A stretch of DNA of 64,000 bases from contig DAOSDC010000005.1 in the NCBI GenBank assembly GCA_035361955.1, positions 32,987 through 96,986 on the forward strand, given 5' to 3'. A program made the position numbers and the translations under genes. Positions 5,207 to 36,503 of this stretch are shown one piece after another. This DNA is from Bacilli bacterium (GTDB taxonomy: Bacteria > Bacillota_I > Bacilli_A > RFN20 > CAG-826). Below the pieces are notes generated by a model. It saw only the letters and a program-made list of their open reading frames with translations, made no database searches and was not told where the DNA came from. Position 1 is the first letter of the stretch; each line of letters starts with the position of its first letter.

Positions 5207-6136
5207 TTATTTATTAGTCGTTTTATCGAGTTCTTGGGATAGGACAACGGCATTGTTGTCAACGTCAAGTCCGTTAAGGCTGTCGATGAATTTACCGAAT
5301 TTGCTATAACCGTAGTTTTCGTAATCGAAGTCTTTGAATTGCGCTTTTAGCATTTTAATTATTTCCGGTAGTGCAATGCGCTTTGTCGGTCGCGCCTTGA
5401 TTTTCTTAATGATGAATCCAGCGATGTCTTGGTCGGTGCCGCTTTCGATCAGCTTCACGTAATGTTGATCTTTTTCTTTCACAAGCGCCAAAGTTTTAAT
5501 CGCCGAGACGAGTTTTGACAAATTGCGTGCCCCATAACGGCGCGGATCAAAATCGGATTGGAGATTCGTTAATAATATTCCTAACTGGCTTAATAAAATT
5601 CTGCCGTCGGTGCCACTTTCGATGATTAAACTTTTAATCGTGTTGGCAAGTTCTTTCGTCTCAATGGTATCGTCATCAGTATCACCATTATTTTTCTTTT
5701 CATCGACCAAATAATTAAAATATTTGAATTCGTTGCACGATGACACGAATGCTTTGCTCGCCTTTTGATCGCCGATGCCGATGACAAAAGCGCCTTTTTC
5801 CCTAAGTTTGATGACTAGTGGTGTAAAATCGCTGTCGGATGTAACGAGTATAAACATGTTGACAAGTCCTTCATTCATGATTTCTAGGGCATCGAGGCTC
5901 ATCGCCATATCGGCGGCATTTTTCTTGACGGCAACGTTATATTGATGAACGGGACGAATCGCGTATTCTGAGGAAATGCGGCGCCAGTCTTCGCCCACGG
6001 CTTTGATGTCGGCGTAAAATCGGCTCGTAATCGCCCGCCCGTATTTAGCCATTTCCTTGATGACGGCGCTCATGCGGTTGACCGGAACGTTTTCAGCGTC
6101 GATCAATAACGCAATTTTATAATTTGTATTATCCAT
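5207..6136 (-). CDS. NYN-domain protein with two C-terminal OST-HTH/LOTUS domains (LabA-like)
   Basis: N-terminus IALLIDAENV...MAMSLDALE...FILVTSDSDFTPLVIKLREKG is a NYN/PIN-like nuclease fold. The C-terminus carries two ~70-aa LOTUS-like repeats (LLSQLGILLTNL..RRYGARNLSKLV and LPEIIKMLKAQFKDFDYENYGYSKFGKFIDSL). Confidence 0.6.
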   Translation of the reverse strand: MDNTNYKIALLIDAENVPVNRMSAVIKEMAKYGRAITSRFYADIKAVGEDWRRISSEYAIRPVHQYNVAVKKNAADMAMSLDALEIMNEGLVNMFILVTSDSDFTPLVIKLREKGAFVIGIGDQKASKAFVSSCNEFKYFNYLVDEKKNNGDTDDDTIETKELANTIKSLIIESGTDGRILLSQLGILLTNLQSDFDPRRYGARNLSKLVSAIKTLALVKEKDQHYVKLIESGTDQDIAGFIIKKIKARPTKRIALPEIIKMLKAQFKDFDYENYGYSKFGKFIDSLNGLDVDNNAVVLSQELDKTTNK

Positions 6137-6286: not shown

Positions 6287-6805
6287 ATGACAAAAACCGA
6301 AATTCGTCAAATGATGATTGCCAAACGGACAGCAATGGAAACCCGTGATGTCAAACTAAGAAGCCATGCTCTAGTGGAAAAGCTAATGCGCGATTATCGG
6401 TTTATCGTCGCCGATATCGTGGCGATCTACGAACCGATTAACAATGAAGTTGATTTGCGTGGTTTGTATCAAACCGGCAAACGGTTTGCGCTCCCAAAAG
6501 TTGTGGGCACCGACATGCACTTCATCGAGATCACGGCTGAAACCGAATTAGTGCGCAGTTCGTTTGGGATCCTCGAGCCGCGCGATGGCCGTATCGTCGA
6601 CGACCACATCGATTTGCTGCTCGTTCCCACACTGGCACTTGACCGCAAGAATTACCGTATCGGGTTTGGCAAAGGTTATTACGACCGCTTTCTTGCCTCA
6701 CACAAGCCAAAAATGACGTTGGGCATCATCTATGATTTTCAGTTAATCGATGGTTTCGACCATCATGAGTTTGATATTGCCCTTGATGGGGCATTAATCG
6801 CTTAA
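6287..6805 (+). CDS. 5-formyltetrahydrofolate cyclo-ligase
   Basis: 172 aa with the MTHFS family pattern (YQTGKRFALPKV..GILEP..DLLLVPTLALDRKNYRIGFGKGYYDRFL). Confidence 0.8.
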   Translation: MTKTEIRQMMIAKRTAMETRDVKLRSHALVEKLMRDYRFIVADIVAIYEPINNEVDLRGLYQTGKRFALPKVVGTDMHFIEITAETELVRSSFGILEPRDGRIVDDHIDLLLVPTLALDRKNYRIGFGKGYYDRFLASHKPKMTLGIIYDFQLIDGFDHHEFDIALDGALIA

Positions 6806-8454
6806 TGACGTTTTTGGTGCGTCATCACGAACGTCGTGACATCAAAGGCATCCATCGGATAGGCGTATAAATATCCTTGAATGGCATCGATGCCATGTTG
6901 GACAAGGTAGTCTTGTTGAAATTTTTCTTCAACACCTTCGCCGACGACTTTAAGACCAAGTGCTTTGCCAAGCGAAATCATGAATTCGATTAATGGGTAA
7001 TTACCATCGACCTCTTCGATACTATTGATGAACTCACGATCGATTTTGAGAATGTCGATTGGTAATTGTTGCAAATACATTAACGACGAATAGCCGGTTC
7101 CAAAATCGTCTAAAGCGATGCGGAAGCCCATCGCTCGTATTGTTTTCAAACGGGCGACCGCTAGCTCGAAATTTTCCAAAAACAGCGACTCGGTAATTTC
7201 AAACACGAAGTATTTGGTGGCGACTTTGTGCCGGACGATGGCATCTTTCAAATAATCGATGAAATTAAGTTCAAGCACTAATTTTGTCGATAGGTTAATC
7301 GACACGCTCGTGGGAGCGGCGCCATCGGCGAGCAACTCTTGGAAATACGCGAAGCTTCGTTCGACCACAAACCGCGTCAATTCCTTGATTTGCCCCGATT
7401 TCTCAGCGGTTGGGATAAAGTCAAGCGGAGCGATGAATCCACGCTTGCCTTGCTTCCAGCGCAACAGTGCTTCCATCGCAAATATTTTGCCCTTTTTAAC
7501 ATCGTACACCGGTTGGAAATATACTTTTATTTCGTCGTTAGTTAGCGCCGAATGAAGTAAGTTGGTCAACTCGATGTTCTCGGTTATCTCTTTCTCGAAT
7601 GAAGCTTGGTAGGAAACCACCGAACCCGGACCCGATTTTTTAGCGACCGACAAAGCCATTTCGATGTGTTGCATCAACGTCTCGTATGTTTCGCCATCTT
7701 CGGGATAACACACGATACCGGAAGACACCGTAAAAAAGAAATCGTCGCCATCGATTGGAATCGATCGGCGCGCTTCTTTGGTATATTCTTGAATCAATTT
7801 GTCCATTTCTTTTCGCGAAGCGATGTTTTGCACCAACAAAACGAATAAGTCGTCGCTGAAACGGAATACATGATGATCTTCGCCCGCCAAAACGCGCAAA
7901 TCGCGAGCAATCGTCGTGATTAAAAAATCACCCGCGGCAAATCCTTTTACTTCATTGATTGAGCGAAAATTGTCGATGTCAATATAGACGATTCCAAGAA
8001 ATTGCCCTTCTTTTGTTTGAAAATGTTCCCGCAGTAGTTCACGAAATTTGTTTTTGTTGAACAAACCGGTCAACCGGTCAGTATAAGCGAGTTCGTAGAG
8101 ACGTCTTTCAAGTATTTCCAAATTGTCATTACTAATGTTGAGATTGGAATTCGATTCTTCCAACCGTTTAATCGCCGTGACATATAAATCCATGCGTCGT
8201 TTTATCAAAAAATAGAAAAGCAGCGTCGTCATCGCCACATAGAAAATACCTTTAGCCAACTGAATGCTGTCGACAAGCGCGTGATTATCACCAGTCAACC
8301 AAAGCAAAATCCGATCTGAGAGCACAATCCAAACAATGCCGAGCACGAGATAAACCGCCATGATTTGAAGCGTGCCCCGCACGGGAAGCAGTCTCCAATT
8401 GCTTTTTTTGAGTTTCTCGCGGAATTGCTCGTCAGCGTTTGGTTTATTACTCAT
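6802..8454 (-). CDS. Membrane-anchored c-di-GMP phosphodiesterase with a degenerate GGDEF domain plus an EAL domain
   Basis: Two N-terminal TM helices. GGDEF-domain region DIDNFRSINEVKGFAAGD with the signature replaced by RFSDDLF. EAL domain has EALLRW and later conserved blocks. Confidence 0.8.
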   Translation of the reverse strand: MSNKPNADEQFREKLKKSNWRLLPVRGTLQIMAVYLVLGIVWIVLSDRILLWLTGDNHALVDSIQLAKGIFYVAMTTLLFYFLIKRRMDLYVTAIKRLEESNSNLNISNDNLEILERRLYELAYTDRLTGLFNKNKFRELLREHFQTKEGQFLGIVYIDIDNFRSINEVKGFAAGDFLITTIARDLRVLAGEDHHVFRFSDDLFVLLVQNIASRKEMDKLIQEYTKEARRSIPIDGDDFFFTVSSGIVCYPEDGETYETLMQHIEMALSVAKKSGPGSVVSYQASFEKEITENIELTNLLHSALTNDEIKVYFQPVYDVKKGKIFAMEALLRWKQGKRGFIAPLDFIPTAEKSGQIKELTRFVVERSFAYFQELLADGAAPTSVSINLSTKLVLELNFIDYLKDAIVRHKVATKYFVFEITESLFLENFELAVARLKTIRAMGFRIALDDFGTGYSSLMYLQQLPIDILKIDREFINSIEEVDGNYPLIEFMISLGKALGLKVVGEGVEEKFQQDYLVQHGIDAIQGYLYAYPMDAFDVTTFVMTHQKRH

Positions 8455-8984
8455 TTGGTAATAACGGTTTCCTTTCGGATTTTTTTCTCAAGATCAAGCA
8501 GTTTCACTTGGTCACGATTTCGTTTGGTGTCCGAACGCAAACTGTATTTCGTCAAATATTTGTAAAGGCGCCATAAGTTCTTAACGTCAAGTACCGCATA
8601 CGAGGTGGCGTCGCGATTGACTTGAAGCGGATTTTCGTCTTGAAAACCGGCTTCTTTTTTCCAATACGATTGTTTGGCGATTTCGACTTCAACGCCGTTT
8701 TTCTTAAAAGCCAAATAGGGTTTGGCGACGCGTTTATATCCAGCTTTGCGAAGCAATAACGGCAGTTGATCACCACCGACAATCTCATCGTTTAACAGCA
8801 AATCGACGTCTTGGGCATCATAATCTTTATCAAGTGCCAACTCGACGCCCAACGAGCCGTATACGACGGGGTGAACCCCAAAACGACCTTCGATTAAGGT
8901 CACGACTTCGTGCAGTGTTTGATAAACGACTTGTCGATGTCCGTTCATACTTTGCCTATCGATTCGACGCTGGCGCGTTTCCAT
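8451..8984 (-). CDS. Small nucleotidyltransferase-fold protein (ANT(2'')/Lnu-like size and motif)
   Basis: 177 aa. YGSLGVELAL-x9-DVDLLL fits the G[SG]-x(9-13)-DxD Pol-beta nucleotidyltransferase motif. Overlaps the downstream EAL gene by 4 nt and the upstream GGDEF gene. Confidence 0.45.
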   Translation of the reverse strand: METRQRRIDRQSMNGHRQVVYQTLHEVVTLIEGRFGVHPVVYGSLGVELALDKDYDAQDVDLLLNDEIVGGDQLPLLLRKAGYKRVAKPYLAFKKNGVEVEIAKQSYWKKEAGFQDENPLQVNRDATSYAVLDVKNLWRLYKYLTKYSLRSDTKRNRDQVKLLDLEKKIRKETVITK

Positions 8985-10117
8985 GCGCTCTTATTAGATT
9001 TTTTTGCCATGTACAGTCCTTCATCGGCCAATCGGTAATAAGTGTCGAAATCAGTTTTTGCATCTGGTATTAGCGTCACGATACCGATACTTACGGCAAG
9101 CGTTAAACCATGTTCGGTAAATTTCTCGTGCTTGACGAGGTTGATGATATCCTCGGCTTTGACTTCCGCTTCTTTTTCTCCAGAACCTGGAAGAATTACC
9201 GCGAATTCGTCCCCGCCAAAGCGACCAATCGTTTGGCAACCACTCATCAATGGTTTCAATAAGTTGGATATTTGCGTCAGCACCTGATCCCCCGCCATAT
9301 GTCCGTGGGTATCGTTGACTGTCTTAAAATTGTCGATATCAAACATTAAAAGCGATACCGGTTGGTTGGATTCGCGTGCTTTGTTGATGCAAGTCGTGCT
9401 AATGTCTAAAAATGTTGCCCGGTTATTGATTTGTGTCAACTGATCGATATGTGCTAATTCTAATAGCACGGCGTCGGTCTTTTCCTTGCTCATCAAGATG
9501 AAACCGATATTGGTGACAATCATGTGGGCGAACAATAGCGTGTACATTAACTGATTGATCGGGCTTGTCGACAACACCGTTAAATCGACCCAACCGAAAA
9601 AGGCGTTGATGCCCCGGAACATCATGATGACGATGACCGTTACGTAAATGATAGCGAAAAATGCTTCCAGCGATGTGCGTTGCTTACGCCGTAATATCGT
9701 GATCGGGGGTCCAATCAGCAATAGTGTCCCGATGAGTGAGAAAAAGAATATGCGTCGCGGTTCCGTGTTCCAAAACAGCACGATCGACAGAAAGAACAAA
9801 ACCGAGGCGATGATAAAGCCCGTATACAAGTTTCGAATCCAACCTTTAAATTCGTCATGCAACGAGATGATTGCCCACGCCTCAAAGAATAGACCGACGA
9901 ACATACTCGTGTTGGCAAAAACTTGCACAATCCAAGCCGGCAACATCGGTTGTAGCATAAATAGCGTCCAGGCCACAGATTGAAACATCTTGGCAATGAT
10001 GAACAAAACTTTGTGAAGCGTGTCTTGCTTCTTAAACACATAGGCGAACAAAAACAAACCGGTAAATAAATTCCCGATTGTAATTAACAAGATAATGGTT
10101 GCAACATCAATTGTCAT
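8945..10117 (-). CDS. Membrane sensor diguanylate cyclase (GGDEF)
   Basis: About 6 N-terminal TM helices. C-terminal GGDEF domain with intact RFGGDEF, DIDNFKTVNDTHGHMAGD and RxxD-like elements. Confidence 0.8.
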   Translation of the reverse strand: MTIDVATIILLITIGNLFTGLFLFAYVFKKQDTLHKVLFIIAKMFQSVAWTLFMLQPMLPAWIVQVFANTSMFVGLFFEAWAIISLHDEFKGWIRNLYTGFIIASVLFFLSIVLFWNTEPRRIFFFSLIGTLLLIGPPITILRRKQRTSLEAFFAIIYVTVIVIMMFRGINAFFGWVDLTVLSTSPINQLMYTLLFAHMIVTNIGFILMSKEKTDAVLLELAHIDQLTQINNRATFLDISTTCINKARESNQPVSLLMFDIDNFKTVNDTHGHMAGDQVLTQISNLLKPLMSGCQTIGRFGGDEFAVILPGSGEKEAEVKAEDIINLVKHEKFTEHGLTLAVSIGIVTLIPDAKTDFDTYYRLADEGLYMAKKSNKSAWKRASVESIGKV

Positions 10118-10244
10118 AAGTTAGTAATCTTTCTTAATTCATTTTATCAAAGGGGGGCTTAGTCGCATAATTATTTAATAATTATTGCGATAATTTACGT
10201 ATTTTAGCACAATTTATTAGATAATTGTTTAAAGAGGACCCTGC

Positions 10245-10991
10245 TTGCTCGACCCGATCAGTTTCACAAAACTAAACGTCATTAATCTTGGACCAATGGT
10301 GTCAAAAGGCGGTTTCGCCTATAACAGCTATTTGTTCAAATCAATTGGAAAAACGTTTTTGATCGACATTCCCCACATTGCCTTAGGAGGCAATATCATT
10401 CCCGTCAATGGTTCCAGTGTCGATCGGGGCAAGATCGAAAAAAGCGGACTTGGAAAAAAGACGTTGGTCCGGTTTCAAACGCTGGAATATTTACGCGCCT
10501 TCACAAGTGGGCGCATCAGTTGGTCCGAACTTCGATCGTTATTAATCATCTCCGGCGCCTTTGGTATTTTTAAACGCGAAGAGTTATTGGATACCGGTGG
10601 CTATTTGACAGCGCTAGGCAAACTTAAAAAAGATACCGTCGGCGAAGACATGGAACTAGTCGTGCGCCTAACTTATCAAGCGCTTGTTAATAAACGATAT
10701 TACCGCGTTTCCTATGTGCATCACGCCAATTGCTATACCGAACTGCCGTCGGATTTGAAGAGTCTTCTCAAGCAACGCAACCGCTGGCAGCGTGGCTTAT
10801 TAGATATTTTGAGTTTGCACCGTCGCATCTTATTGCGACCTCAATATAAGCAACCGGGCATGCTTGGCTTCCCCTATTTCTTCTTTAATCTTGGGAGTAT
10901 ATTTTTGAAACTTTTGACCCTTTCTTGCCATAATAAAAACCTCCTACCAAGATTATATGGCAGAAGGTGTTTTTTATTTTGTGTGAACTAA
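10245..10991 (+). CDS. Truncated family-2 glycosyltransferase (C-terminal part only, with TED-like and Q(R)xRW motifs); probable gene remnant
   Basis: Contains VGEDMELVVRL and QRNRWQRG, hallmarks of processive GT2 synthases such as PgaC, BcsA or IcaA. It lacks the N-terminal DxD catalytic half, the C-terminal membrane region is abbreviated, and an AT-rich non-coding stretch lies upstream. Confidence 0.4.
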   Translation: MLDPISFTKLNVINLGPMVSKGGFAYNSYLFKSIGKTFLIDIPHIALGGNIIPVNGSSVDRGKIEKSGLGKKTLVRFQTLEYLRAFTSGRISWSELRSLLIISGAFGIFKREELLDTGGYLTALGKLKKDTVGEDMELVVRLTYQALVNKRYYRVSYVHHANCYTELPSDLKSLLKQRNRWQRGLLDILSLHRRILLRPQYKQPGMLGFPYFFFNLGSIFLKLLTLSCHNKNLLPRLYGRRCFLFCVN

Positions 10992-11051
10992 ATGGGGGTC
11001 AGTTCAATTGCGCGCCGTTTTCATTAATATGCATGTAAAACCGGCCTTGTT

Positions 11052-34148: not shown

Positions 34149-36503
34149 ATGAACAAACGAGCCTTCGTATCCCAACTCATCTTCTTCACGCTGGTCATCA
34201 GCTATACGATTTTGTATTCCCTGCTTTATTTCGTGCCGGCGATAACGTATTTGCACCGAGCGTTTTTGATGTTGGGTTTCTTCTATTTGGTGCTGTTTTG
34301 GTTTTTGAATGATTTTGGTGAACGTTCGCCACTTGTCAAATGGACCACCAGCGCGGTGCTAATCACGCTTCTGGCCCAATTTGTTATTGAGTTGGTCGGA
34401 CTCCATGAATTCGTCCACGCCAATCCAATCTTGAACTTCATCGTCCATTTCTTATTCGGCATCGCATATTTCATTTTTGCGCTCAGCGTGTTCAAAGAGT
34501 CGTTCATACAGGCGACAAATCGCCATATTCGCAAAGCTTCGTTTGATTATAATGATGCGGTTTTATTCGATTATGACAAACGGAAACGGACTATCGATAT
34601 TCAGTTTTCGCAATCCTTTTGTGACAAGTACAAATTGGAACATCCATCGTTGTCCTTGAGCGAAGTGGAGTTTCGCCAACTTGTCGTTCAAGAAGATTTA
34701 GCAAAATCGAATTGGTTTGACGAACGGCTGCCTCATGATGCCATCATTAATCAAAAATACCATGTGAATTTTTCAAATATCCCGACGAGTGTTGCCCTTC
34801 AAGTCAAAGGATCATATCAAGTTAACACACGCGTTGTTGTGTTGGCGTTTGATGTCAGCGCACTAGAAACCGCGGAGGCTGATTTGCTATCGTCTAATTC
34901 ACGCCGAATTGAACTACTAGAAAATTTGCCACTCGGTATTATTGAGCAAAAACCGATTTTTGATGATAAAGGTGTATTTATCGATTATGAATACATATAT
35001 TGCAACAAAGCATTTGGACGGATGACCGGCTATCCGCCTGATGTCGTTGTTGGAAACAAAGCCTCGGTCATCATCCCCAATCAATACAAAGAACGCATCA
35101 CCAAATTCGGACAAGCGATTCTCGATGGCAAATCGGTATCGTTTGACACGACGATTCAACCGATAAATCACACATTCTCGGTCAATGTATATCCCACCGT
35201 AAATAAAACGTTCATCTCGATTTATAAAGACATCCACCAACTTAAAGTGCTAAACGAACAACTCCATTATTTGGCGACGCACGACAAGATGACAAACTTG
35301 TACAATCAGCGCGGCCTTCTGGAAATGCTTGAGGAAAGAACAGACATTAAGACGGCGGTCTGCTTTTACGTTTCCATCGGCAATTACGAACGAATTTACG
35401 ATTTTTATGGATATACGTTTATTGAAGGTATTCTCAAACAGTTATCGGATGCCTATATTCCTTATATTCGCTCCGGCCATCTCGTGGCCACGACAAGTTC
35501 CAGCGATTTAATCGTGTTGTTAGTCAATCCCACAAGCAAAGAAGTCAATCAAGCATTAGAAGCCGCGCGCGCCAGCGTCTACCGCAAGATGACGATTGAA
35601 CATACGCAAGTGCTCGTCAAACAAAATATCGGTTATGCAGTGCTTGGCGAACACGCCGATAATATTCAACAGTTAATCGCCTGCGCGTCGTTGGCGATGT
35701 CAGAAGCCGCTTCAAGCGAACACAACATCATCGTCAAATACGTACCGAAACTTAAAGAAACGCTTGAGCACAACATCGCCATGGCTAACAAGCTCGATGA
35801 AGCGCTTGAAAATGGCCTGATTCGCATCGCCTTCCAAAACATCGTCGATTCGCGAACGGGTGAGGTCGTGCTATTAGAAGCGCTGGCCCGCTGGACCGAT
35901 GACAAAATGGGTTACATCGCTCCCGATGTCATCTTTGAATTTGCCAAAAAATCGAACATGATCGATTTACTTGATGACTATTTGCTTGAAAACACACTGA
36001 AAGAATATGCGAGACTTAGGCAAAAGGGTGTGACCGGCCGCTTATCATTGAACGTGTCGGCACCAGCATTTTTGCGCGCTACATTCCGGCGGACCGTCAT
36101 TGAAAAGGCCAAAGAATACCAACTTACGCCAGATAGTATCGTCATTGAGGTATCAGAAACGACATTTGTGCGCAACATCGAGCAAACGATTGCGATGATT
36201 AAGAATTATAAAATCGATGGCTTTCTAATTGCCATTGACGATTTTGGGAGCCAATATTCGTCAATCGGCATTCTAGACTTAATTCCTTACGATTACTTGA
36301 AACTAGATGGTATCTTCGCCAGCCGGCTCGGATCAGAAAATATTAAAGAGTTAATTCGCGTCCTCGTAAGCATTACTGAACGCGACAATGGTCAAATAAT
36401 CGCTGAGAAGATTGAAAATGAAGCGATGGTCGCTTTAATGCAAAATCTCGGCTGTCATATCCATCAGGGCTATCACTATCACCGTCCACAAATATTTGAA
36501 TGA
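34149..36503 (+). CDS. Membrane sensor with PAS, degenerate GGDEF and EAL domains (c-di-GMP phosphodiesterase)
   Basis: About 6 N-terminal TM helices and a PAS-like region. The GGDEF-domain region lacks the GG[DE]EF signature (SSSDLIVLL). EAL domain has LLEALARW, EVSET and IAIDDFGSQYSS. Confidence 0.8.
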   Translation: MNKRAFVSQLIFFTLVISYTILYSLLYFVPAITYLHRAFLMLGFFYLVLFWFLNDFGERSPLVKWTTSAVLITLLAQFVIELVGLHEFVHANPILNFIVHFLFGIAYFIFALSVFKESFIQATNRHIRKASFDYNDAVLFDYDKRKRTIDIQFSQSFCDKYKLEHPSLSLSEVEFRQLVVQEDLAKSNWFDERLPHDAIINQKYHVNFSNIPTSVALQVKGSYQVNTRVVVLAFDVSALETAEADLLSSNSRRIELLENLPLGIIEQKPIFDDKGVFIDYEYIYCNKAFGRMTGYPPDVVVGNKASVIIPNQYKERITKFGQAILDGKSVSFDTTIQPINHTFSVNVYPTVNKTFISIYKDIHQLKVLNEQLHYLATHDKMTNLYNQRGLLEMLEERTDIKTAVCFYVSIGNYERIYDFYGYTFIEGILKQLSDAYIPYIRSGHLVATTSSSDLIVLLVNPTSKEVNQALEAARASVYRKMTIEHTQVLVKQNIGYAVLGEHADNIQQLIACASLAMSEAASSEHNIIVKYVPKLKETLEHNIAMANKLDEALENGLIRIAFQNIVDSRTGEVVLLEALARWTDDKMGYIAPDVIFEFAKKSNMIDLLDDYLLENTLKEYARLRQKGVTGRLSLNVSAPAFLRATFRRTVIEKAKEYQLTPDSIVIEVSETTFVRNIEQTIAMIKNYKIDGFLIAIDDFGSQYSSIGILDLIPYDYLKLDGIFASRLGSENIKELIRVLVSITERDNGQIIAEKIENEAMVALMQNLGCHIHQGYHYHRPQIFE

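Follow-up and report, generated by a model that had tools for sequence, protein, structure and literature searches.

A small, soluble nucleotidyltransferase (NT) is encoded between a membrane diguanylate cyclase and a membrane c-di-GMP phosphodiesterase in the 64,000-nt stretch of DNA analysed here (the window). The reading that we favour, at somewhat better than even chances, is that NT is an NMP-transferase acting on a probably small-molecule acceptor, and that it is co-expressed cargo of a c-di-GMP operon and not an enzyme of c-di-GMP metabolism. NT belongs to an unnamed, widespread family that is modelled by no curated library and is functionally uncharacterised; its linkage to c-di-GMP genes is restricted to one clade, in which the gene persists under purifying selection after the loss of either neighbour.

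Architecture of the operon

The operon comprises three ORFs, 8945..10117 (390 aa), 8451..8984 (177 aa as the longest ORF) and 6802..8454 (550 aa), in the order GGDEF cyclase, NT, degenerate-GGDEF/EAL phosphodiesterase. Coordinates are positions in the window, all three genes lie on the minus strand, and residues of NT are numbered from M13 of the longest ORF. The features are:

10118..10244, minus strand: AT-rich region, presumed promoter region of the operon (consensus scans only, numbers near shuffled expectation)
8945..10117, minus strand: membrane diguanylate cyclase, 390 aa (Pfam GGDEF E=2e-38; NCBI HOJ44879.1, GGDEF domain-containing protein)
8945..8948, minus strand: ATGA start/stop overlap of cyclase and NT (read from the sequence; same 4-nt overlap at loci L001, L004, L012, L018 and L043)
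8451..8948, minus strand: soluble minimal nucleotidyltransferase (NT), 165 aa from M13 (longest ORF to 8984, 177 aa; NCBI HOJ44878.1 also 165 aa)
8802..8858, minus strand: NTase core motif G31-S32-x14-D47-V-D49, predicted metal and NTP site (S32, D47 and D49 invariant in 35 and 105 family sequences)
8682..8684, minus strand: E89 in the strand GVEVEI, candidate third carboxylate or catalytic base (invariant in the subfamily of the window protein)
8502..8564, minus strand: C-terminal helical motif Y129...R138-x3-K142-x3-D146-x2-K149 (Y129, R138 and D146 invariant, K149 nearly so, in 35 and 105 family sequences)
8451..8454, minus strand: ATGA start/stop overlap of NT and phosphodiesterase (read from the sequence; same overlap at L001 and L004)
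6802..8454, minus strand: membrane c-di-GMP phosphodiesterase, 550 aa (Pfam GGDEF E=3e-31, EAL E=3e-63; NCBI HOJ44877.1)

All NT homologues start at the position of M13 and the NCBI annotation agrees, so that translation almost certainly begins at 8948 and yields 165 aa. Because the ATG of M13 forms an ATGA with the stop codon of the cyclase, both junctions are 4-nt overlaps; the one between cyclase and NT suggests translational coupling. An earlier note on this DNA had identified the genes and the layout of the operon correctly, as the ORFs, the Pfam matches to GGDEF and EAL and the predicted fold of NT confirm. Its 4-nt overlap of NT and phosphodiesterase also stands, but the 40-nt overlap of cyclase and NT and the 177-aa protein that it described are artefacts of choosing the longest ORF, and the agreement in size that it saw with the 177-aa ANT(2'') is therefore coincidental. 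Consensus scans, with numbers near shuffled expectation, found no convincing intrinsic terminator between the three genes, and the locus shows no anomaly of composition.

The cyclase is a multi-pass membrane protein with at least six hydrophobic segments in its N-terminus and an intact GGDEF at aa 301-305 (nt 9203-9217); an RxxD I-site just upstream of this motif is absent. The phosphodiesterase has two TM segments, a degenerate GGDEF domain (SDDLF at aa 200-204 instead of GGDEF) and an EAL domain (EAL at aa 328-330) with the complete set of catalytic residues (EAL / EITE / DDFGTG / KID / EGVE / QGY).

Fold and motifs of the nucleotidyltransferase

The AlphaFold (AF2) model of NT (pLDDT 95.1, pTM 0.89) bears out the assignment as a minimal Pol-beta-type NTase, since its best Foldseek matches are the NTases ANT(2'')-Ia, TM1012, LnuA and MenT1 (TM 0.55-0.65). 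The top match in the PDB was ANT(2'')-Ia (5cfu, 4wqk; E about 4e-5, TMq 0.56, rmsd above 6 A), the highest TM-score belonged to MenT1 (8an5_B; TMq 0.65, rmsd 3.6), LnuA (4fo1) reached TMq 0.58, and TM1012 (2ewr) and 5uvd gave E about 1e-4 and TMq 0.57-0.64 (5uvd 0.64). No signal peptide or TM segment was found in NT.

The invariant aspartate pair, which hhalign aligns with D44/D46 of ANT(2'')-Ia, is D59-V-D61 in the 177-aa numbering, 14 residues past G-S; the motif GS-x9-DxD proposed previously had taken D54-Y-D56 instead. E89 is replaced in a second NT subfamily in the family alignments, and may have a catalytic role in the subfamily of the window protein. The C-terminal helical motif is proposed, from its conservation, to bind the triphosphate or the acceptor.

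No model of Pfam, NCBIfam, PADLOC or PHROGs matched NT above threshold; the sole Pfam model touching it was DUF2204 (PF09970), with E=0.002, 18 bits (gathering threshold 20.3) and the first 45 profile positions covered. In the search for resistance NTase families that the earlier note had proposed, the window NT matched neither PF10706 nor the NCBIfam Lnu or ANT models, whereas 8 of 35 family members matched PF10706 (best E=6e-6). The sub-threshold PF10706 matches of the family are collinear over the N- and C-terminal halves, and the PF10706 matches point to a distant relationship with the ANT(2'') family.

Genomic context of the family and of the linked clade

An exhaustive search gave 66 family representatives at 50% identity, and a profile search 1,989 clusters at 90% identity; the few clusters with organism names (Bacillus, Virgibacillus, Oscillospiraceae, Ruminococcaceae) place the family, so far, in Firmicutes. 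Members were found on just 2 of 72,556 plasmids. Neighbours of outgroup members encode GNAT, a PF00144 beta-lactamase-like protein (4-nt overlap), Y_phosphatase3, an MBL-fold protein, NUDIX, an Rph-like enzyme and transporters (MFS, MatE, and ABC with ABC_tran and ABC_tran_CTD). Among 10 long matches, five are fusions to GNAT, and fusions to Y_phosphatase3 and NUDIX occur as well. GGDEF or EAL genes were found at 0 of 26 distinct outgroup loci, where many contigs are short, so that their absence was sampled across limited flanks only.

Linkage to c-di-GMP genes, which the earlier note had suggested looking for in related genomes, was thus present in a single clade of uncultured Bacilli (11 distinct loci, 33-98% NT identity) and absent from the outgroup loci; neither a clear place of NT in a resistance clade nor a conserved linkage elsewhere was found. 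In the linked clade NT is at every locus the gene immediately following the cyclase or a cyclase remnant, and it usually precedes the GGDEF-EAL phosphodiesterase. It is kept at two loci at which the cyclase has decayed (L011, internal deletion; L001, N-terminus lost) and at two without the phosphodiesterase (L018, L045). Its dN/dS of 0.07-0.08, like that of the neighbouring genes, indicates purifying selection. The whole block is syntenic in the clade, flanking MTHFS and NYN genes included, and the NT gene is, from this arrangement, vertically inherited within it.

Members of the linked clade are less acidic than other family members (net charge -3 to +5 against medians of -4 to -7; Mann-Whitney p=0.002, not corrected for phylogeny); the window NT has a pI of 9.2, and ANT(2'')-Ia and LnuA have net charges of -16 and -12. 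With such charges a cationic antibiotic fits poorly as the acceptor, and an anionic acceptor would be compatible. The shift, together with the ATGA-coupled adjacency at 11 distinct loci down to 33-36% NT identity and the invariable position behind the cyclase or its remnant, could be explained if NT had a function within the c-di-GMP module, whether by nucleotidylating the cyclase or phosphodiesterase (AMPylation, GMPylation or similar), by acting on pGpG, GTP or c-di-GMP, or as a c-di-GMP-responsive output enzyme; a precedent is Listeria, whose output-related enzyme PssZ has its gene flanked by DGC and PDE genes (PMC4125290). We consider such a role unlikely. Purifying selection still maintains NT at loci with a destroyed cyclase or no phosphodiesterase, the outgroup loci lack GGDEF and EAL genes, and vertical inheritance of the syntenic block in one lineage can account for the linkage. 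Moreover, no conserved NT position carries a clade-specific basic or novel residue, and inspection of the sequence by eye made no PilZ, MshEN or other known c-di-GMP-binding motif evident. The modification of a second messenger put forward earlier consequently finds no direct support.

In relatives, an ODP-GGDEF-REC gene and a gene for a 941-945-aa processive-type GT2 (Glyco_trans_2_3) run divergently from the operon. By analogy with PssZ in the Listeria dgcA-dgcB-pssZ-pdeC operon (PMC4125290, PMC13492145), NT might modify an exopolysaccharide or cell-envelope precursor from this c-di-GMP-linked synthase, and Foldseek lists the NTase-fold sugar-phosphate transferase FKRP weakly (TMq 0.34). We regard this as quite improbable: in the window genome the ODP-GGDEF-REC gene is lost and the GT2 is reduced to a 214-aa fragment, yet NT is intact; outgroup members do not adjoin glycosyltransferases; and NT has no export signal or membrane anchor of the kinds sought above.

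If NT is the co-expressed NMP-transferase that we favour, the two-lobed protein of 165 aa, predicted to be catalytically competent, would bind Mg2+-NTP through G31-S32 and D47/D49 (plus E89), complete its pocket with the C-terminal helical lobe (Y129, R138, K142, D146, K149) and transfer NMP onto an acceptor hydroxyl. The acceptor would most probably be a small molecule (xenobiotic, antibiotic-like compound or metabolite), because the nearest folds (ANT(2'')-Ia, LnuA) and the usual neighbours and fusions (GNAT, Y_phosphatase3, NUDIX, beta-lactamase-fold) point that way. The gene would have become fixed, in a single lineage of uncultured Bacilli, directly behind the membrane diguanylate cyclase, usually ahead of the GGDEF-EAL phosphodiesterase. 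With ATGA overlaps that would couple it to both neighbours, NT would be made whenever the turnover pair is made; as no link to c-di-GMP is seen among its relatives elsewhere, NT is most probably a passenger that is co-expressed and would function independently of c-di-GMP. Against a passenger, the depth of the linkage (down to 33-36% NT identity) combined with the putative translational coupling exceeds what a random passenger would be expected to show; against a small-molecule acceptor, the predicted model has its best TM-score with a tRNA-modifying toxin (MenT1), not with a small-molecule enzyme.

Comparison with known systems

Like NT, ANT(2'')-Ia (AadB; 4WQK, 5CFU; PF10706) is a two-lobed minimal NTase of ~170 aa in which an N-terminal alpha/beta lobe is followed by a helical one at the C-terminus, and the G-[GS]...D-x-D metal motifs of the two align. 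LnuA (4FO1) has nearly the same size (161 vs 165 aa), the same fold and the best profile-sequence alignment over the core motif region (hhalign probability 32%, E=5e-4, 52 columns). These similarities, and the resistome-like neighbourhoods of some family members (Rph-like, GNAT, beta-lactamase-like and efflux genes), would fit a horizontally acquired resistance enzyme (true ANT or Lnu) that had hitch-hiked into the operon, as the earlier note had considered; we judge this extremely improbable, and it has no direct support. The identity to ANT(2'')-Ia is about 12-15% (hhalign probability 1%), NT has YGSLG in place of GGW, and it is basic whereas ANT(2'')-Ia is strongly acidic (pI 4.5); LnuA likewise differs in charge. 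ANT(2'')-Ia is integron- or plasmid-borne, whereas NT is chromosomal and not on a mobile element, matches no curated ANT(2'') or Lnu model, lies in a block of unremarkable composition whose synteny is vertical across large divergence, and belongs to a family nearly absent from plasmids. Nothing points to aminoglycoside modification, the trait of ANT(2'')-Ia, for NT.

MenT1 and the DUF1814 (AbiEii) toxins (8AN5) are, like the window NT, small basic NTases whose C-terminal part has conserved basic and acidic residues, which are activity-essential in the toxins; the R...K...D...K helix of NT resembles the K and D residues that are specific to the DUF1814 toxins (PMC7450476), and TglT/MenT3 and JHP933 are also among the Foldseek matches. 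That NT is a growth-arresting toxin adding nucleotides to tRNA 3' ends is nevertheless very unlikely: PF08843 is unmatched in the window NT and 35 relatives, PADLOC gave no match for the window NT, the flanks (the 390-aa membrane cyclase and the 550-aa phosphodiesterase) offer neither an antitoxin-like neighbour nor a defence or TA setting, most of the wider family is acidic, fusions to GNAT, phosphatase or NUDIX domains are frequent in it, and the gene is chromosomal, non-mobile and vertically inherited.

TM1012 (2EWR) and the Paracoccidioides NTase-like protein (5UVD) share the size class and fold of NT and are themselves uncharacterised minimal NTases; DUF2204, with its partial match below gathering, is likewise without known function. 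The dgcA-dgcB-lmo1913(pssZ)-pdeC operon of Listeria monocytogenes (PMC4125290) is a Firmicute operon of similar arrangement: membrane diguanylate cyclase genes on one side and the gene of an EAL phosphodiesterase on the other flank one for a non-signalling enzyme. This intervening gene is not homologous to that of NT; its product is no NTase but a membrane-bound glycoside hydrolase that acts specifically on the Pss exopolysaccharide.

The operon and its surroundings

Three open reading frames (ORFs) make up the operon:

8945..10117, minus strand: cyclase ORF, 390 aa, Pfam GGDEF (E=2e-38)
8451..8984, minus strand: longest ORF of the small nucleotidyltransferase gene, 177 aa
6802..8454, minus strand: phosphodiesterase ORF, 550 aa, Pfam GGDEF (E=3e-31) and EAL (E=3e-63)

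The flanking genes were correctly described in the earlier note as encoding a GGDEF cyclase and a degenerate-GGDEF/EAL protein, since Pfam domains, the NCBIfam assignments in agreement with them, motifs and transmembrane (TM) segments all concur. The cyclase carries six or more hydrophobic segments in its N-terminal part, and its GGDEF motif (residues 301-305) is intact. The phosphodiesterase has two TM segments, a degenerate GGDEF motif of its own (SDDLF) and a complete predicted EAL set (EAL 328, EITE 419, DDFGTG 449, KID 470, EGVE 506, QGY 526). Judged by these motifs (GG[DE]EF in the cyclase, the EAL set in its partner), the two would form a c-di-GMP turnover pair around the nucleotidyltransferase (hereafter NT). 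Identical proteins for all three genes are deposited for the MAG 'Bacilli bacterium' (HOJ44877-HOJ44879). Scans for promoters and terminators gave no useful signal, their counts being close to the shuffled expectation, and no Rfam family (c-di-GMP or other riboswitch, tRNA or rRNA) reached its gathering score across the 64-kb window.

The 40-nt overlap between the cyclase and NT genes reported earlier is an artefact of taking the longest ORF. The N-termini of the homologues all fall at position M13 of the 177-aa ORF, the NCBI annotation of the gene is 165 aa long, and the M13 start codon overlaps the stop codon of the cyclase gene as ATGA; NT is therefore a protein of 165 aa (8451..8948), numbered here from M13, and both junctions are 4-nt overlaps. 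A genuine 12-aa N-terminal extension, and with it the 40-nt overlap, was rejected because it is not shared by the homologues. The dN/dS of NT against two relatives is 0.07-0.08, similar to that of neighbour genes, with dS near saturation, and NT is under purifying selection; a non-coding or decaying ORF was rejected at this dN/dS (about 0.07).

A 5-formyltetrahydrofolate cyclo-ligase gene (6287-6805, plus strand) is convergent with the phosphodiesterase gene and shares a 4-nt tail-to-tail overlap with it (6802-6805), an arrangement also kept in relatives. Between groES/groEL and the cyclo-ligase gene lies a gene for a 309-aa NYN ribonuclease-like protein with two OST-HTH/LOTUS domains (5207-6136, minus strand). 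Some 25 kb from the operon lies the gene of a second GGDEF-EAL protein (784 aa; 34149-36503, plus strand), which matches the domains of the operon proteins in phmmer (EAL E=1e-31, GGDEF E=2e-6).

Fold and conserved residues of NT

The assignment of NT in the earlier note as a minimal Pol-beta-type nucleotidyltransferase (NTase) agrees with both motif and predicted fold. The minimal-NTase motif, hG[GS] plus [DE]h[DE]h, is present as Y30-G31-S32 ... D47-V-D49-L, and S32, D47 and D49 are invariant in the family alignments of 35 and of 105 sequences. The motif proposed before, GS-x9-DxD with D-Y-D as the acidic pair, has to be replaced: in both alignments the invariant pair is D47-V-D49 (D59/D61 in 177-aa numbering), 14 residues past G31-S32. 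By hhalign, D47/D49 are placed on D44/D46 of ANT(2'')-Ia (AadB); the reference sequences used for AadB and LnuA match PDB 4WQK and 4FO1, respectively, at 100% identity. The candidate third carboxylate is E89 (strand GVEVEI), a residue that does not vary within the subfamily of the window; in the second subfamily this position is Ala, and a Glu five positions later is conserved. Also conserved in the family is a C-terminal helix motif, Y129...R138-x3-K142-x3-D146-x2-K149. No TM segment was found in NT.

The AlphaFold2 model, computed from the 105-sequence alignment, reached a pLDDT of 95.1 and a pTM of 0.89. All ten Foldseek matches at E<=1e-3 were NTases or NTase-like, which points to an alpha/beta NTase core. 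Among the best PDB neighbours were ANT(2'')-Ia (TMq 0.56 at E about 4e-5), TM1012 and the fungal NTase-like protein 5uvd (TMq 0.64), together with MenT1 and LnuA (see below). No NTase turned up when the PDB was searched by sequence, either with NT alone or with the profile of the family; NT is tied to known structures through fold comparison only. NT is taken to be a genuine, and probably active, minimal nucleotidyltransferase. It would bind Mg2+-NTP by means of G31-S32, D47, D49 and E89 and then transfer NMP to a hydroxyl on an acceptor.

Linkage to c-di-GMP genes

Eleven distinct loci were recovered in the one clade of the family that is linked to c-di-GMP genes (the window, L001, L004, L012, L008, L009, L010, L011, L018, L043 and L045), with NT identities to the window of 33-98%; a locus search with the narrower clade alignment yielded four genome loci. 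NT lies directly downstream of the cyclase or its remnant in all 11, usually with a 4-nt overlap, and where contigs extend far enough, the convergent 5-formyl-THF cyclo-ligase gene and the NYN/OST-HTH gene come next. With the N-terminal membrane domain of the cyclase as a query, only clade members were matched. Regarding orthologue identities, NT diverges about as fast as the cyclase and the cyclo-ligase do, and the NYN/OST-HTH gene is the most conserved of the neighbourhood (74-96% across the clade); on this pattern the loci represent one moderately deep lineage with conserved synteny.

The full cyclase-NT-phosphodiesterase trio is found in seven clade loci. In L011 (UBA6120; 5700-5993; NT identity 39%), an internal deletion fuses the first TM segment of the cyclase to its last ~25 residues; the remnant is 98 aa long and has no GGDEF domain. 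In L001-L003 (L001:5430-5909; NT identity 87%), the cyclase has lost its entire TM region along with the beginning of the GGDEF domain, and only a truncated GGDEF fragment is left. NT and the phosphodiesterase are intact in L011 and L001 despite this decay. L018 (2722-2809) and L045 have no phosphodiesterase gene, and the cyclase-NT pair is followed directly by the convergent cyclo-ligase gene. NT is thus intact in every clade locus with cyclase decay or phosphodiesterase absence, and the conserved core is the cyclase-NT pair, not the trio.

The outgroup set consisted of 26 distinct loci, with P0039 (36% identity), P0041, P0042 and P0050 as the nearest, P0060 and B. subtilis P0141 as more distant members, and 20 mostly short metagenome loci from the second-subfamily alignment. 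None of the 26 holds a GGDEF or EAL gene in a phmmer screen, the seeds of which do pick up a divergent ODP-GGDEF-REC protein in control loci. The co-occurrence with GGDEF/EAL genes that the earlier note had proposed to look for is therefore present in 11 loci of one clade and absent from 26 outgroup loci. GNATs dominate the outgroup neighbours (at least 7 of 50 neighbour proteins); the others include Y_phosphatase3, NUDIX, MBL-fold, PF00144 beta-lactamase-like and Rph-like enzymes, MFS and MatE efflux pumps and ABC transporters. This habitual pairing with GNATs, phosphatases and NUDIX proteins points to an uncharted activity in modifying or detoxifying small molecules.

The most economical reading, to which we give slightly better than even credence, is that NT is a co-expressed cargo enzyme and not an enzyme of c-di-GMP metabolism, because NT outlasts the independent loss of cyclase and phosphodiesterase and no linkage is seen in other branches of the family. 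In one Bacilli lineage, its gene lies within a c-di-GMP turnover operon, to which it is coupled in translation.

A role of NT in c-di-GMP signalling is fairly unlikely, even though the adjacency of NT and cyclase, with NT always the next gene after the cyclase, holds down to 33-36% identity, and a precedent exists in Listeria, where pssZ, the gene of an output-related enzyme, is placed between the DGC and PDE genes (PMC4125290). (Listeria lmo1913 was considered as an NT homologue and rejected, as it is the glycosidase PssZ.) The linked clade is also less acidic, with net charges of -3 to +5 versus medians of -4 to -7 elsewhere in the family (p = 0.002, ignoring phylogeny), a shift that would favour an anionic acceptor, for example a phosphorylated protein, an RNA or a nucleotide. 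However, no conserved position carries a clade-specific basic residue, which makes the charge shift weak evidence, and NT has been kept in the window despite the loss of the ODP-GGDEF-REC gene and most of the GT2 gene from which the operon is divergent in relatives.

Regarding this loss, the ODP-GGDEF-REC gene (645-673 aa in L001, L004 and L012) is entirely absent from 10118-11051, and the GT2 gene (941-945 aa in relatives) is represented by a remnant (10269-10883, plus strand) corresponding to residues ~616-829 of the 945-aa protein (Glyco_trans_2_3, HEAT). Apparently some 4 kb have been deleted between hflX and the promoter region of the cyclase, or the gap may be an artefact of MAG assembly. 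That NT modifies EPS or the envelope, a reading to be seen beside this glycosyltransferase neighbourhood, is quite improbable.

It is likewise unlikely that a minimal ANT/Lnu-like NTase was recruited in this Bacilli lineage as a dedicated third component of the c-di-GMP module. Its target there could be pGpG or some other guanine nucleotide, or it could tune signalling by covalent nucleotidylation of the cyclase or phosphodiesterase; alternatively, it could itself be an output enzyme under the control of c-di-GMP. If it was recruited, the shift of the linked clade from acidic to neutral or basic would mark a switch to an anionic acceptor, and functional coupling, not inherited gene order, would explain why NT directly follows the cyclase at every locus.

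A single full-text search of a library of papers found no description of an NTase within a DGC/PDE operon. The observation made in the earlier note is real, with its details corrected, and its interpretation (modification of a second messenger, or a hitch-hiking resistance enzyme) is partly supported. The clade wedged between cyclase and phosphodiesterase is a natural test case for whether an NTase has been co-opted into second-messenger signalling. If co-opted, NT would add a new enzymatic layer to the c-di-GMP networks of Firmicutes, which to our knowledge have few known effectors; otherwise, it would be a signalling operon with an ordinary passenger gene in it.

Comparison with known nucleotidyltransferases

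No curated model of Pfam, NCBIfam, PADLOC or PHROGs matched NT at threshold. The only Pfam model to appear was DUF2204 (PF09970; E=0.002, 18.0-18.2 bits versus a cutoff of 20.3), with the match confined to profile positions 4-46. PF10706 (Aminoglyc_resit; gathering score 21 bits) gave no match for NT at E<=0.1 and touched 8 of the 35 relatives, mostly below threshold (best E=6e-6), the sub-threshold matches being collinear over the N- and C-terminal halves. No NCBIfam Lnu family matched NT, and one of the 35 relatives matched Lnu(D) (E=0.006).

Foldseek matched the NT model to MenT1, a toxin that modifies tRNA (TMq 0.65, rmsd 3.6 A), the likeness that speaks for a MenT-like toxin. This is very unlikely: the MenT/AbiEii model (DUF1814, PF08843, including motif IV) matched neither NT nor the 35 relatives, PADLOC gave no match, and there is no adjacent antitoxin gene, the neighbours being the 390-aa GGDEF membrane protein and the 550-aa GGDEF-EAL protein. 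CD-NTases (cGAS/DncV-like, CBASS) have about 300 or more residues and a defence-operon context, whereas NT has 165 and no PADLOC match; DwCdnB was only marginal in Foldseek (E=0.02, TMq 0.37). The HMM comparison suggested in the earlier note hence leaves NT outside PF10706, the Lnu families and the CD-NTases, and NT is not a demonstrable member of these, of DUF2204 or of DUF1814. As the motif and fold agree and the named families do not match, NT is regarded as a new family-level variant of the minimal Pol-beta-fold NTase. Its family, a remote relation of the ANT(2'')/Lnu group, is covered by no curated model.

An exhaustive HMMER search gave 66 family representatives at 50% identity, and a profile search gave 1,989 clusters at 90% identity. 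Most of the profile matches listed are about 155 aa long and unnamed or labelled hypothetical; among them, the few organism-named members belong to Bacillus, Virgibacillus, Oscillospiraceae and Ruminococcaceae. Five of ten longer members examined are fusions to GNAT acetyltransferases; Y_phosphatase3 and NUDIX domains are the further fusion partners. GNAT fusions occur in both domain orders (P0056, P0067, P0071, P0075, P0082, P0183), with single cases of Y_phosphatase3 (P0070, tyrosine-phosphatase-like) and NUDIX (P0086); in one lineage (L013:3283-4658) NT overlaps a PF00144 beta-lactamase-like gene by 4 nt. These fusions and this overlap are leads to the substrate of the family. With a confident fold and conserved catalytic residues now defined for an unmodelled family of about 2,000 clusters, its members are well-defined orphan enzymes, of which the c-di-GMP association is intriguing but lineage-restricted.

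Family members were found in 2 of 72,556 plasmid records, and an acquired ANT/Lnu resistance gene is highly improbable, for all the structural likeness to both enzymes. NT lacks the strong acidity of the ANT(2'')-Ia family, which binds cationic aminoglycosides and confers resistance (pI 9.2 and net charge +5, versus pI 4.5 and -16 for AadB; LnuA has a net charge of -12). LnuA is matched at TMq 0.58 in Foldseek and at a probability of 32% in hhalign. Taken as a whole, the family has the look of chromosomal enzymes that modify small molecules, in the structural class of ANT(2'')-Ia and LnuA.
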